A stretch of 64,000 bases of DNA from Escherichia coli (GCF_024700885.2 NZ_CP117016.1); one strand, 5' to 3'. Positions 36,468 to 40,470 are shown, counted from the stretch's first letter. The notes: generated by a model from the sequence alone, not told the origin. Made by a program: numbers and translations.

Positions 36468-36531
36468 CATAAATAAAATACACCTGATAATAAAATATAG
36501 TGGAAAACCAGAATAAAGAAATGGTCCGGTA

Positions 36532-38319
36532 TTATGCAAAATCCTCAAGGTGGCGACTGATACTGTTTTCACGGTAACAGGTCACCAGTAATTCACGGGT
36601 TGCCCGGGTGAACGCCACATAAAGCACCGGAATCACTTCAGACTCATCCGCTGCACCAGAGTGCACGAAAGACGCATTGATAACCGCCACATACGGGAAC
36701 TCCAGCCCCTTGCTGCTCTGGTACGTCAGTAAATGCACCACATCCTTACGTCGCGAGTATGTCTTCTTGCCTTCCCTGTCAAAACAGGTGGCAAAAGGTA
36801 CCCCGCGTAGTGTCATAACGTCCTGCAATTGTTGCGCTGAACGCTCTGTCGGACACAGCACAGCCATATCACTCCAGTGACCACACAGGACATGGCGCTT
36901 CTCCAGCCAGTCTGCAACTTGTCTGGCTTCATCACGTTCAGAAGCACAACGCAGGATTTCCGGCTCTGTACCCTCTTCACCGCCCGCCTGTGGCTGAACG
37001 AGCGGTATTTCACGGTTCTGATGTTTTTCAAAATACTCGCGGGAGAATGCATAAGCAAAGTGCAGAATGCGTTTCGGATTACGATAATTGACCGGCAGGA
37101 CAGAAGTGCGTCCCTGTGCCTGAATCCCCACACTGGCCAGAGAAAAGTTCAGGGCCCGCTCCCGCCGGTAAATGGACTGGGCGTCATCGTACATCAGGAG
37201 CAGTGAACGGGATGCGTTATCAAACAGACGGGCAATCAGGGCCAGCCAGCGACTGTCAAAATCATGCCCCTCATCCACCAGTACAGCATCATATCCGGTT
37301 CGGGTGATTTTTCCGCTGTTCACGGCCTCTTCCAGTGCACTGAAGCATTTATCAGGATATTCTTTTCTGTCGGCCGTCACCTTAATACCGTGGCGTTTTA
37401 CCATTGAGGCACACCAGCTGTGAAAATGGGATACCGTAACCCGTGATGCCAGCCCTCTGGCTTCAATGCATTCCCGCAGATAGCTGGCCAGGGTAATGTT
37501 GTAGCACAACACCAGAATCTTTCCGGGTGTGGTTTCAGCCAGGTAAAGGCAACGGAACAAAAGAATCATGGTTTTTCCGGAACCGGCCACACCATGAATG
37601 ACACGATGCCCGTCACCAATATTTCTGGCCAGAATCTCCTGCTGAATATCCATAATTTTGATTTGTGAGTTCTGTTTCACGGTCACTTCAGGAAACAGAT
37701 GGGCGCGCAGAATATCTCTCATCCGGGGTGTCACCCGGGTTCTGAATCCCGTGGTAAACATCCCGGCAATTTTTTGCCGGAATACTTCAGGTAAAACAGA
37801 CTGCGTCATTTCATCCTGGCAGATTGTCTGTGCTGAAGGAAAAATTTTTTCCACCGCATTCTCATCATTCCCTGCCAGTGTCTTCAGTTGCTGACGGGTA
37901 ATGCGGGTAAACACCACACCATACGCCCAGGCCAGGTTCAGCCGTCCCTTATACTGACCGTCATTCTGCCGTAAGCACGGGTTTGCAGGTAAGGCATTAA
38001 CCGTATCACAGGCATAACGACGAACCTGTACCAGCGGATTGATTTCTGATTTCAGAAGACCGTCGGTTTCCAGCGTGACCTGCTCCTGATTTACCTGGCG
38101 CAGCGTGGAAACCGTCCAGTCCTTGACCTCCAGAAATACCAGTCCGTTCTCCGGGTCAATAATGACAAAATCCGGATGCCGGTTTTTCCGTCCCACCGGA
38201 ATATCGTACCAGACAAGGCAGTCATCATTCAGAAAGCTCTCCAGTCGTGAAGCTACCCTCCTCTCCCCGGGCGTCATTCTCTCCTCAGTGGACGCCGATA
38301 CATTTATCAGTTTCGCCAT
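36532..38319 (-). CDS. NERD (nuclease-related domain) fused to UvrD/Rep-like SF1 helicase
   Basis: 595 aa; N-terminal NERD-like region (RVASRLESFLNDDCLVWYDIPV...HPDFVIIDPENGLVFLEVKDW); helicase Walker A HGVAGSGKTM, Walker B VLVDEGHDF, and C-terminal motif LYVAFTRATREL. Confidence 0.75.
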   Translation of the reverse strand: MAKLINVSASTEERMTPGERRVASRLESFLNDDCLVWYDIPVGRKNRHPDFVIIDPENGLVFLEVKDWTVSTLRQVNQEQVTLETDGLLKSEINPLVQVRRYACDTVNALPANPCLRQNDGQYKGRLNLAWAYGVVFTRITRQQLKTLAGNDENAVEKIFPSAQTICQDEMTQSVLPEVFRQKIAGMFTTGFRTRVTPRMRDILRAHLFPEVTVKQNSQIKIMDIQQEILARNIGDGHRVIHGVAGSGKTMILLFRCLYLAETTPGKILVLCYNITLASYLRECIEARGLASRVTVSHFHSWCASMVKRHGIKVTADRKEYPDKCFSALEEAVNSGKITRTGYDAVLVDEGHDFDSRWLALIARLFDNASRSLLLMYDDAQSIYRRERALNFSLASVGIQAQGRTSVLPVNYRNPKRILHFAYAFSREYFEKHQNREIPLVQPQAGGEEGTEPEILRCASERDEARQVADWLEKRHVLCGHWSDMAVLCPTERSAQQLQDVMTLRGVPFATCFDREGKKTYSRRKDVVHLLTYQSSKGLEFPYVAVINASFVHSGAADESEVIPVLYVAFTRATRELLVTCYRENSISRHLEDFA

Positions 38320-38512
38320 AAACGCACCTTAATCTGTGAACAAAAAAATAATCACCACCGACATCCACGGATGTTATATCGTGGGTATCGCTTTATTCAG
38401 AAATAAAAAACAGAATCATTAACATGACCAGAATACTGTGAACCATGCTGCAGGGTATCTGCAGATATCCCTTCTGTTATATCCGGCCGGGGTAAAATCA
38501 GAACACTGACTG

Positions 38513-39757
38513 TCAGGCAGCTTCATTTTCCGCGTATTCCAGACTCTGCAGGTACTGCAGCGCCGCCGGGTCAGCCACATATTCCACCTGCCCGTGGTGA
38601 CGCTCCACTTCATTAATGATTTTCTCAAGCTTCACGCGGAAAAATTCTTTACGCAGGTTAATCCTGTTAATGCGGTATTTTTCCAGACTGTCATGAAGTG
38701 TTTTTTCCAGCGCAGGCGCATCATCACAGGAAATCATGGCGTGAACATCAAAATCAAACGGAACAGAAGCACCACTTAACTCTTTGACCCTGTCCATGGG
38801 TTCCAGCCGTCGGGTCATGCCAATTTTAAAGACATCCTCACCAAACGAACCAATATTCGAAATGATATAAACATGCCCCTGTTTCGTAAGCTGAGCCATG
38901 GATTTAGCACGTTCATACTGCGCATGCGCTTCCTGAATTTTCTGTTCCAGCTCCAGGCGTTGTTTCTCTAACTCCTCCCTGTGAGCCCCTTCTGCTGCGC
39001 GCAGCGCCTCCTCAATCAGTTTCTGCTGCTCAGCAAGACGCCGTTCTTCCTCTTCCGCTTCCCGCTGGCGCCGTTCAGGTTCATCCTGACGCTCTTTTTC
39101 TTCACGCATCTGACGCTTAAGCTCTGCCTGATATTCCTTCTCTTCCTGCGCTTTTTCCAGCAATGCCACTTTGTCCAGAAACTGTTGCCTGATACTCTCC
39201 CGGTCAGAATTATCTTCCAGGTTAAGAAAGGCTATTTTCTCACTGACAGCAGCGTAAGCCTCTCTTTCCTTACGAAGCTGGTCATATTTGCTTTGCCAGT
39301 TATTAATCGTTACACCAGCCAGCAGAGTCTTCGCCTTAAATTTCCAGGCGGAATCAACAATCCGTTGCATTGCACGGCTGGCCTTCTGTCTGGCGGTATG
39401 AAATTCCTCACGACGTCTGGCCAGTTGCTCCTTTTCCTGTCGTATTCCCCGGGCTATCGCGGCATTGACAGTTTCATTAAAACCCCGCTCTCTCTGAACC
39501 AGCTCTGAAACGGCCTGCTCAAAGGCTGCTGTTTTCTTTCTGAGTCTCCGGTAAATAAAAAAACGAAGTAAAATTGCAAATACAGTAAGCAAACCAAAAA
39601 ACAAACCAATAATACCTGCCGGATTCGATACTGCATCAATAAAGCGCTCATTAAGATTTATCAGCGCCCTGACCGCCACATAAATCCCCCAGAGAATAAC
39701 GCAAACTAAAATCAGGACAAATCCCGCTGCATTATCATCTTTTTTTCCTCCTGCCAT
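38513..39757 (-). CDS. Membrane-anchored coiled-coil protein with C-terminal T5orf172/MUG113-type GIY-YIG domain
   Basis: 414 aa; two N-terminal TM helices, about 200 aa of charged heptad-rich coiled coil, then GHVYIISNIGSFGEDVFKIGMTRRLEPMDRVKEL...EFFRV, typical of T5orf172 domains. Confidence 0.7.
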   Translation of the reverse strand: MAGGKKDDNAAGFVLILVCVILWGIYVAVRALINLNERFIDAVSNPAGIIGLFFGLLTVFAILLRFFIYRRLRKKTAAFEQAVSELVQRERGFNETVNAAIARGIRQEKEQLARRREEFHTARQKASRAMQRIVDSAWKFKAKTLLAGVTINNWQSKYDQLRKEREAYAAVSEKIAFLNLEDNSDRESIRQQFLDKVALLEKAQEEKEYQAELKRQMREEKERQDEPERRQREAEEEERRLAEQQKLIEEALRAAEGAHREELEKQRLELEQKIQEAHAQYERAKSMAQLTKQGHVYIISNIGSFGEDVFKIGMTRRLEPMDRVKELSGASVPFDFDVHAMISCDDAPALEKTLHDSLEKYRINRINLRKEFFRVKLEKIINEVERHHGQVEYVADPAALQYLQSLEYAENEAA

Positions 39758-39912
39758 GACTTTCCTTTATTTTCCTTCTCAGTAACTGAATATCTTTGAT
39801 TAACGCCCTCCGGAAATATTTATACCCGGAAGGTTGTCCGGCTTTATGATGCCAGCCACTACAGGATTAACTGCAGGCTGAGCACAGATTCCTCTGCTAT
39901 TTCAGTGTCAGA

Positions 39913-40326
39913 TTAATACTGATTACCGGAACAAATGGGCAGATGCGTAAATCCGGGTTTGCTGGCCATATAAAGCGGCGCACAGGTAGGGTTGCGGGGT
40001 TCAGTGACCGGCACAGCCTCATTTTTCTCAGCCACCGACGGTTGTGACACCTTCCGGACAGCCGCTGATTTTTCCTTCTGAACCGGCTTCGTGGTGACCG
40101 GTGATTTCACCTGACGTTTGCCGGGTGCCACGCCATAACCAGAACAAAGGCGCTTCGACTGACTCAGACTTCCGTCATTGCAGACAAAACGTCCGTCTGA
40201 CGTACAGTGTGAAATACCACCTTTAGCACCCGAGCAGGGTTTTCTTCCCCGCGCAGCATCTGCCTGAACCGAAAATAAAAGCCCCACGAACAGAAAAAAG
40301 ATAATTTTCTTCATTTTAAAACTCAT
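39913..40326 (-). CDS. Small secreted Cys-containing protein (137 aa)
   Basis: Signal peptide MKKIIFFLFVGLLFSVQADA; several Cys in the mature part; no family recognised. Confidence 0.45.
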   Translation of the reverse strand: MSFKMKKIIFFLFVGLLFSVQADAARGRKPCSGAKGGISHCTSDGRFVCNDGSLSQSKRLCSGYGVAPGKRQVKSPVTTKPVQKEKSAAVRKVSQPSVAEKNEAVPVTEPRNPTCAPLYMASKPGFTHLPICSGNQY

Positions 40327-40470
40327 ACATTGTTATTGCTGATATGCCCGAGTTATCAGGATGATGAAACATTCAGCCAGCGTTGTCATAAGCCAGAATA
40401 ATGTCACATTCACACCTGACATATATCCATCGCTGTTTATTTATTTCTGTTCTGCCCTCCCTGCTCCGGC

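Follow-up and report, generated by a model that had tools for sequence, protein, structure and literature searches.

Organization of the locus

The DNA analysed here (referred to as the window) is a stretch of 64,000 nucleotides from Escherichia coli (GCF_024700885.2, NZ_CP117016.1), and this report concerns a block of three genes located in it between tssE and tagA, at the end of a type VI secretion system (T6SS) cluster. The window corresponds to a pheU island of the enteroaggregative E. coli (EAEC) type, with both the Sci-1 (tle1/tli1-EAEC) and the Sci-2/aai T6SS clusters aboard, and the EAEC-type pheU island of E. coli MLI114 matches it at 100% identity. The order of the genes on the minus strand is tssF, tssG, tssJ, tssE, the three block genes, a 101-aa gene, and the gene for a protein with ImpA_N and VasL domains (tagA). 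The three open reading frames (ORFs) of the block are intact and co-oriented, as a first-pass annotation of this DNA had described them. The features of this region are listed below, together with the start positions of the Prokaryotic Genome Annotation Pipeline (PGAP) where noted and the gene numbers in strain 042 that we assign to them.

36474..40487, block of 4,014 bp, present here and missing where the E. coli site is empty (limits from blastn against STEC409 and STEC316)
40471..40905, minus strand, tssE, last core gene of Sci-1 (ORF)
39913..40326, minus strand, YdcA-like, putatively secreted Cys protein, 137 aa; PGAP start 40314; EC042_4546
38513..39757, minus strand, predicted membrane-anchored GIY-YIG nuclease of the SNIPE/PD-lambda-1 family, 414 aa; EC042_4547
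36532..38319, minus strand, NERD-UvrD nuclease-helicase, 595 aa from the first ATG and 581 aa from PGAP start 38277; EC042_4548
36162..36467, minus strand, Escherichia-specific 101-aa gene directly upstream of tagA (ORF); EC042_4549
34740..36107, minus strand, tagA (ImpA_N, transmembrane segment, VasL), intact 455-aa ORF

TagA represents a class of established T6SS accessory proteins, and TssA is EC042_4540 (PMC6745524). The EC042 numbers were obtained by counting genes from TssA, which gives 4546-4548 for the block, 4549 for the small gene and 4550 for the VasL gene. The small gene is kept in both the filled and the empty E. coli alleles, and has no homologue among the T6SS loci of other genera examined. 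EC042_4550 is presumably TagA.

The GIY-YIG protein is related to SNIPE

SNIPE of E. coli (formerly PD-lambda-1) is an inner-membrane-anchored protein with a DUF4041 domain and a GIY-YIG nuclease (10.1101/2025.11.03.685801). ManYZ and the tape-measure protein of the phage are found in association with it, and it cuts phage DNA during injection, an activity reported for the E. coli protein only (10.1101/2025.11.03.685801).

The central protein of the block contains a Pfam T5orf172/MUG113 domain at residues 294-386, in which the motifs GHVYI, KIG, TRR and RKEFF are all present. A Glu residue that corresponds in the alignment to E414 of PD-lambda-1 is invariant. At the N-terminus, the hydropathy profile shows two hydrophobic segments (residues ~11-33 and 46-69) followed by the sequence RRLRKK, a predicted membrane anchor. 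Both segments are helical in the AlphaFold 2 model, where they are accompanied by a predicted long helical stalk. This model is based on an alignment (mean predicted local distance difference test score, pLDDT, of 79) and replaces a poor single-sequence model (pLDDT 65). A Foldseek search with it finds no significant match in the PDB, and its structural matches in the AlphaFold database are all T5orf172/DUF4041 proteins.

The protein is matched by two PD-Lambda-1 models of PADLOC, with E values of 5e-88 and 5e-82. The matches are partial, with 294 bits over positions 264-476 of 491 and 274 bits over positions 189-475 of 496 (43-58% of the models), and the protein fails to match either model over its full length. 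In comparison, a phage protein annotated as PD-lambda-1 reaches 658 bits over positions 1-485 of 491 of the same model. For the central domain of SNIPE, DUF4041 (PF13250), Pfam gives no match to the window protein even at E<=10. This domain is detected in 0/4 of the T6SS-linked proteins as against 8/8 of the distant homologues, and also at residues 198-252 of the annotated PD-lambda-1. Residues 130-195 of the window protein, the positional equivalent of DUF4041, align weakly, and an hhalign comparison with DUF4041-type homologues gives a probability of 100% over residues 130-408. Judged by these comparisons, the protein is a true homologue of the SNIPE family over residues 130-408.

Outside T6SS loci, the nearest relative is L22 of phage phiP27, with 63% identity over residues 117-413, and it likewise has no DUF4041. 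Its gene is placed like a moron, with the Q antiterminator gene on one side and stx2e on the other, which is consistent with a role in exclusion or defence. By its domain content and surroundings, the window gene is a member of a DUF4041-less, T6SS-embedded sub-family of SNIPE that resembles phiP27 L22.

The N-terminal hairpin and its short periplasmic loop (residues 23-57, LINxNERFIxxVSxPAG) are nearly invariant across genera. Neither SNIPE nor phiP27 L22 has a related N-terminus.

A nuclease domain in a T6SS locus, preceded by hydrophobic helices of the kind found in some effectors, could also belong to a DNase effector that is delivered by the T6SS and has its immunity gene next to it. However, PAAR, VgrG, Rhs, MIX and FIX markers are all lacking, as are an adaptor, an Eag-type chaperone and a nearby cognate cytoplasmic immunity gene, and the homology runs lengthwise to a defence nuclease family and a phage gene. 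Moreover, the protein is kept where the T6SS has been deleted (see below), and we regard delivery as an effector as highly improbable.

The NERD-UvrD helicase and the Cys protein

The 595-aa protein has Pfam NERD (residues 17-110), UvrD-helicase and UvrD_C domains, with the NERD D..EVK motif, Walker A, DE and SKGLE all intact. PADLOC model PDLC01087 ("C3a187, NERD+UvrD") matches it with an E value of 1e-139, residues 1-594 being aligned to positions 1-556 of 559. Matches of GajB models to the UvrD core are weak and partial (<=74 bits). No neighbour shows a match to GajA, and a Gabija-like pair was rejected because the block genes assort independently. A paper on UG/Abi reverse transcriptases names a different NERD-helicase cluster, not C3a187. 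From its database match, the helicase is a candidate defence protein.

The 120 best homologues of the helicase are all from E. coli, and the wider family contains 568 clusters at 50% identity (E<=1e-30). Two contexts were viewed in the search of representatives, and both are short contigs without T6SS genes.

The third protein of the block has a signal-peptide-like N-terminus and six Cys residues. Its N-terminal half matches NCBIfam PRK10040 (below the cut-off) and phrog_6000, and its homologues in other genera (59-66% identity) carry Pfam PF27300 YdcA and are found at the same position of the locus. By these matches the protein appears YdcA-like, with no assignable role. The first-pass annotation had called the block genes defence-like, which the PD-Lambda-1 and C3a187 matches bear out, and none of the three proteins is matched by a T6SS structural or effector family.

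Conservation of the tssE-tagA slot in other genera

At least 12 enterobacterial genera have block genes in the interval from tssE to tagA. The GIY-YIG protein is 70-81% identical in Enterobacter, Serratia, Pectobacterium, Pluralibacter, Salmonella enterica subsp. arizonae, Huaxiibacter, Tenebrionibacter, Kosakonia, Lelliottia, Klebsiella aerogenes and others, and its gene lies between tssE and tagA in every locus with sufficient flanking sequence. The YdcA-like gene is often located just before it, and the NERD-UvrD gene follows it in a subset of the loci. The divergence from the proteins of other genera is similar for the block and its flank, with identities of 65-66% for the helicase, 70-79% for the GIY-YIG protein and 70-79% for the flanking TssE.

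The core proteins TssF, TssG and TssJ form two lineages that are about 61% identical to each other, and TssF and TssG vary together (r = 0.99). TssE, the GIY-YIG protein and TagA ignore this split and co-vary instead among themselves, with r of 0.76 for GIY-TssE, 0.66 for GIY-TagA and 0.77 for TssE-TagA, as compared to 0.25, 0.11 and 0.21 for GIY against TssF, TssG and TssJ, respectively. The co-variation indicates that tssE, its cargo and tagA act as a 3' module that is co-inherited or co-transferred.

The occupancy of the slot was also viewed from TagA, with 7 homologues picked solely for the diversity of their genera. An intact GIY-YIG gene is present in 2/7 of these loci and a remnant in another 2/7, while the helicase is present in 2/7 and the YdcA-like gene in 3/7. 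Remnants of the GIY-YIG gene correspond to residues 1-64 in Citrobacter koseri, 182-203 and 367-414 in Cedecea, and 287-406 in Rosenbergiella, and such decay shows repeated loss from the slot. The first-pass annotation had held that its view would be undone if other intact loci uniformly carried the same three genes here with evidence of T6SS function. This is true in part: the genes do occupy the same position in many genera, but the slot is not uniformly filled.

A search for a near-identical donor finds matches only in Escherichia and in one Citrobacter plasmid. This IncFIB/IncFII plasmid of Citrobacter sp. TSA-1 (NZ_CP053574.1) has a whole Sci-1-like T6SS cluster aboard, in which the Cys/GIY-YIG block recurs at 97% identity together with the small gene, tagA and an ibrAB/PerC edge. 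It is a possible route for the locus between genera.

Two other genes are found in the non-Escherichia loci. A 156-aa gene, for which there is no Pfam, PHROG or PADLOC match, lies directly after tssE in many of them (including L008, L014 and L074-L076) and is not found in E. coli. A gene for a protein of 215-218 aa is often next after tagA.

Independent assortment of the three genes

The three genes are not inherited as a unit. Among E. coli, 136 genomes carry the helicase and the GIY-YIG gene, about 480 records carry the helicase alone and have no Sci-1 core, and about 400 records retain just an IS66-truncated NERD fragment, the last two counts being extrapolated from evenly spaced rows. Breakpoints of sub-blocks fall at window positions 38321, 38410, 39873 and 40313. 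The helicase is missing in Enterobacter and the Cys gene in Serratia, and across the other genera each of the three genes is found without the others. Since they occur in every combination, they are best regarded as separate units, and a single three-gene system was rejected for this reason. The first-pass annotation had suggested one uncharacterised module; this does not agree with the assortment, nor with the GIY-YIG gene being, by sequence, a variant of the characterised SNIPE.

In E. coli JE86-ST02, which lacks the Sci-1 core, the helicase stands alone. Its reading frame is unbroken, whereas tagA and the small gene carry frameshifts. Loci with a deleted or decayed T6SS (L003, L004 and L016) also keep the trio. 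Retention of the helicase and of the trio without the T6SS argues that selection on these genes does not depend on the T6SS.

The helicase-only remnant of JE86-ST02, with its ibrAB genes, is adjoined (L002, 1-3744) by genes for a TerB-N protein, an ATPase and a DEAD-box helicase (Shango-like). The region is a defence island even without the T6SS.

Empty sites and the boundaries of the block

The first-pass annotation had expected an empty site in other E. coli strains, and such sites are found. In STEC409, tssF-G-J-E are followed by a 66-nt gap, the small gene and tagA, and Sci-1 is intact. The site of STEC316 is arranged in the same way, and a contiguous empty junction is present in 37 E. coli genomes. 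A second copy of the empty arrangement is located at the left of the window.

4156..5078, minus strand, degraded paralogous module with a tssE remnant, a small-gene pseudogene and a tagA N-terminal remnant

As the first reading had it, nothing lies between the small-gene pseudogene (4450-4754) and the tssE remnant (4817-5078) of this module. The two are about 62 nt apart, and the TagA N-terminal remnant is at 4156-4388. The module is part of a larger region (1664-5233) that contains the remains of a third, Sci-1-like T6SS module broken up by insertion sequence (IS) elements, including an intact VasL-domain gene (1664-2818) and a tssB fragment. E. coli O104:H4 C227-11 holds the same remains.

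In blastn alignments with STEC409 and STEC316, homology breaks at window positions 36473 and 40488. Between these points, the 4,014-bp block stands in place of 95 bp of the empty allele, among them the final ~10 tssE codons. The tssE product here ends in ..QQRYVQT, as compared to ..QQQFVDNSSYYHV in the empty alleles, in both cases directly before the stop codon. The filled allele has a derived, shortened 3' end of tssE, and the empty allele keeps the long form, which resembles that of other genera.

The boundaries of the block (36474/40487) show no terminal repeats, inverted repeats or target duplication, just short matches at chance level, and no recombinase gene is present in the block. The GC content of the block (0.48-0.52) is like that of the T6SS core (0.51-0.54), whereas that of the Kiwa genes on the other side of tagA is 0.34-0.35. 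These observations argue against insertion by a mobile element. The E. coli empty sites contain no trace of the block, and the 156-aa gene of other genera has left no remnant in the window. The absence of remnants from both allele states favours neither gain nor loss in E. coli.

The first-pass annotation had suggested that the block is a later insertion, and in its strongest form this would be a recent insertion, in an E. coli lineage, of a defence cassette of ~4 kb with three genes into a contiguous tssE/small-gene/tagA arrangement. The empty alleles of E. coli, their freedom from block remnants, the empty degraded paralogue and the shortened, derived end of tssE in the filled allele are all in accord with it. 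On the other hand, the block proteins are as diverged between genera as TssE and their divergence tracks that of TssE and TagA, no near-identical donor is found beyond Escherichia and the Citrobacter plasmid, and the sub-blocks occur separately. The boundaries bear no integrase gene, target duplication or terminal repeat, the GC content is native-like, many genera have the slot filled, and decay remnants show loss. A recent insertion is hence quite unlikely, and we instead attribute the presence and absence of the block in E. coli to turnover of the slot, which may proceed through loss or through replacement of the allele by recombination in the flanks.

Reported co-transcription with sci1

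A preprint of the Cascales laboratory (10.1101/2025.02.08.637259) refers to EC042_4547 and 4548 as "accessory genes" and places an ops2 element for the anti-terminator RfaH between EC042_4547 and EC042_4548. It also reports the function of ops1. A reporter after EC042_4548 loses its expression in ops1, ops2 and rfaH mutants, and mutation of ops2 lowers sheath assembly without abolishing it (10.1101/2025.02.08.637259). The corresponding elements in the window are as follows.

38250..38257, minus strand, candidate RfaH ops2 (GGAGGGTAGCTT; motif match)
60048..60059, minus strand, ops1, exact consensus GGCGGTAGCGTG, in the hcp-clpV spacer

The candidate ops2 is the sole GGTAGNNT on the coding strand between the GIY-YIG and helicase genes, and is located about 20 nt inside the annotated helicase ORF. 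It is not conserved in the other genera examined, with the exception of one metagenome-assembled genome. As the reporter after EC042_4548 needs ops1, ops2 and RfaH, transcription at this point belongs to the sci1 operon. Reduced expression of tagA would give the partial T6SS phenotype of the ops2 mutant. Two candidate internal promoters are located at 40389-40361 and 38442-38415.

A second variable interval after tagA

Directly downstream of tagA are two adjacent, co-oriented genes with a low GC content.

33132..34525, minus strand, Kiwa-like kwaA (33965-34525) and kwaB (33132-33962), PADLOC matches, low GC

The E values of the PADLOC matches are 3e-10 for KwaA and 2.4e-12 for KwaB, and the two constituents of Kiwa, a multi-transmembrane kwaA product and a kwaB product with DUF4868, are both found here. 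Kiwa is a membrane-associated defence directed against phage and conjugation at the point of DNA entry (PMC11785009). Syntenic genes in loci L074 and L075 have Pfam KwaA/KwaB annotations, and a Kiwa pair follows tagA also in Serratia (69% and 58% identity), in an Erwinia-like contig and in Edwardsiella. Other contents are found in the interval between tagA and ibrA in E. coli, namely Zorya II in STEC316 and the gene of an AAA protein (2.7 kb) in STEC409, and the interval after tagA in Edwardsiella holds Hachiman and an integrase. The tagA-to-ibrA interval is therefore a second variable slot for defence genes.

In the Erwinia-like T6SS locus (L074, 9927-13386), a gene downstream of Kiwa encodes a protein of more than 1,627 aa with NERD, Ser/Thr kinase and SF1 (superfamily 1) helicase domains.

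The edge of the E. coli island on this side (30400-33091) contains a gene for a 3'-phosphoadenosine-5'-phosphosulfate (PAPS) reductase (ibrA-like, 31859-33091), an ibrB/ParB-like gene and a PerC regulator gene. The PAPS reductase has weak BrxP and DndC matches in PADLOC. The ibrA/ibrB/PerC edge is common to all E. coli variants seen and to the Citrobacter plasmid.

The intact 455-aa ORF of TagA is split by PGAP into three pseudogene fragments, one of them a "ShlB/POTRA" piece, and the same pattern is repeated across many E. coli records. The split is probably an artefact of the protein-homology evidence.

Proposed function of the block genes

The block genes are best explained as long-resident cargo of the conserved tssE-tagA slot that acts independently against phages or plasmids and is expressed together with the T6SS, a reading to which we give a probability of roughly 0.6. 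The gene content, families, motifs, synteny, co-variation, remnants and assortment come from the present analysis, and the mechanism of SNIPE and the RfaH/ops-dependent transcription from the literature. That this sub-family and the helicase act in defence, and what they act on, is inferred.

In the proposed mechanism, the two-helix membrane hairpin would tether the stalk and the GIY-YIG/T5orf172 domain, with its catalytic residues intact, to the inner membrane. By analogy with SNIPE, the 414-aa nuclease may cut foreign DNA while it crosses the membrane, and the tether may keep the nuclease off the chromosome. The 595-aa protein would combine a NERD nuclease of the PD-(D/E)xK type and a UvrD-type SF1 helicase in one chain, load on invading DNA and degrade it by ATP-driven translocation. 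The genes would be transcribed with sci1 through anti-termination by RfaH, yet would not be parts of the T6SS machine.

Several observations weigh against this assignment. In SNIPE, it is DUF4041 that binds DNA and the tape-measure protein of the phage, and this domain is undetectable in the GIY-YIG protein. Defence has been demonstrated for no member of the DUF4041-less sub-family, nor for any NERD-UvrD protein of this clade. For C3a187 itself, we found in the literature no system definition, paper or experimental test behind the PADLOC model. The near-invariant, clade-specific hairpin and loop suggest a conserved partner in the envelope. The helicase stop codon overlaps the tagA start codon in Serratia, Pectobacterium, Edwardsiella and Cedecea. 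This overlap, the stable synteny and the co-variation with tssE and tagA across two core lineages are unusual for ordinary defence cargo. The synteny, co-variation and overlap could mean that the genes are functionally coupled to the T6SS.

Such coupling would be expected if the block genes were true accessory (Tag-like) components of the T6SS, acting for instance at the membrane complex or at the site of TagA capture, or in DNA processing at firing, with their likeness to defence proteins explained by the recruitment of defence domains. Besides the shared position in at least 12 genera, the co-variation with TssE and TagA and not with TssF/G/J, the ORF overlap in four genera and the invariant hairpin, the RfaH/ops-dependent sci1 transcription, the lowered sheath assembly of the ops2 mutant and the label "accessory genes" in 10.1101/2025.02.08.637259 all fit such a role. 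However, intact T6SS loci without the block genes exist, each of the genes is dispensable in some genus, and an intact helicase gene survives alongside a decayed tagA and without the core. Outside T6SS loci, a phage gene is the nearest relative, and T6SS assembly is not known to involve nuclease or helicase activity. Reduced expression of the downstream tagA accounts for the ops2 phenotype. A role as T6SS components thus appears unlikely to us, and independent cargo remains the preferred reading.

A variant that combines the two aspects is put forward with equal reserve, and we consider it doubtful. The SNIPE variant would be stationed by its invariant hairpin and loop at a T6SS-associated or other conserved envelope site, and the end of the operon would form a unit of offence and defence. 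If so, co-expression through RfaH would link contact killing with an immunity that blocks entry (the SNIPE-like nuclease, NERD-UvrD and Kiwa), and the attacker would be shielded from phages and plasmids that are released by, or transferred from, the cells with which it is engaged.

EAEC sci1 is a main model for the T6SS, yet its genes EC042_4546-4549 still go by the name of accessory genes, with no function known. From their domains and profile matches, two of these genes can now be described as a membrane nuclease of the SNIPE family and a nuclease-helicase of the NERD-UvrD type. We found no link in the literature between T5orf172 or SNIPE and the T6SS, and the conserved T6SS linkage of these genes appears to be unreported as far as we could find. 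The block genes have travelled with the tssE-tagA module across the Enterobacterales, and in the published reporter data transcription just after EC042_4548 depends on RfaH and the sci1 ops elements. This provides a concrete, testable link between a contact-dependent weapon and immunity at DNA entry. The DUF4041-less sub-family, shared with the Stx phage phiP27, can be used to test which parts of SNIPE set its target specificity. The 3' end of these T6SS loci is a defence hotspot with two slots, useful for the discovery of systems. Should the genes be plain passengers, the result still corrects the view of a recent insertion and shows the block to be more than one system.

Comparison with known systems

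The helicase resembles Nhi and Nhi-like proteins in having a nuclease and an SF1 helicase in a single polypeptide, and NERD is listed for Nhi-like proteins (PMC10952713). However, no Nhi model is among the 25 of 35 PADLOC matches that were listed, and the helicase core of the window protein is of the UvrD/PcrA type. In comparison with Gabija, no GajA/OLD nuclease partner is found by PADLOC among the neighbouring genes. Kiwa differs from the block in being a separate two-gene system of low GC content outside it.

The block genes share their locus and their RfaH/ops-dependent transcription with TagA and the other sci1 accessory genes (EC042_4546-4550). In contrast to TagA, 4546-4549 have no reported role in the T6SS, and the domains encoded by the block are those of nucleases and a helicase, not of T6SS families.

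phiP27 L22 (P27p22) and the "P27-like" proteins of E. coli and Klebsiella have the same DUF4041-less middle region as the GIY-YIG protein. L22, for which no function is reported, is of similar length (409 aa) and covers the same part of the PADLOC profile. Its N-terminal ~115 residues are unrelated, however, and its gene is located beside stx2e in the late region of a prophage, that of an Stx2e phage.

SNIPE is among the closest known systems. An N-terminal membrane anchor (seen by hydropathy in the window protein), a helical linker and a C-terminal GIY-YIG/T5orf172 domain with conserved catalytic residues are common to both, and the identity to the phage protein annotated as PD-lambda-1 is 53% over residues 211-406. 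There are also clear differences. The upstream half of the globular DUF4041 domain is missing from the window protein, and the single transmembrane helix of SNIPE is replaced by a predicted two-helix hairpin, again from hydropathy. Finally, SNIPE is found in prophages or islands, whereas the window protein sits in T6SS loci.

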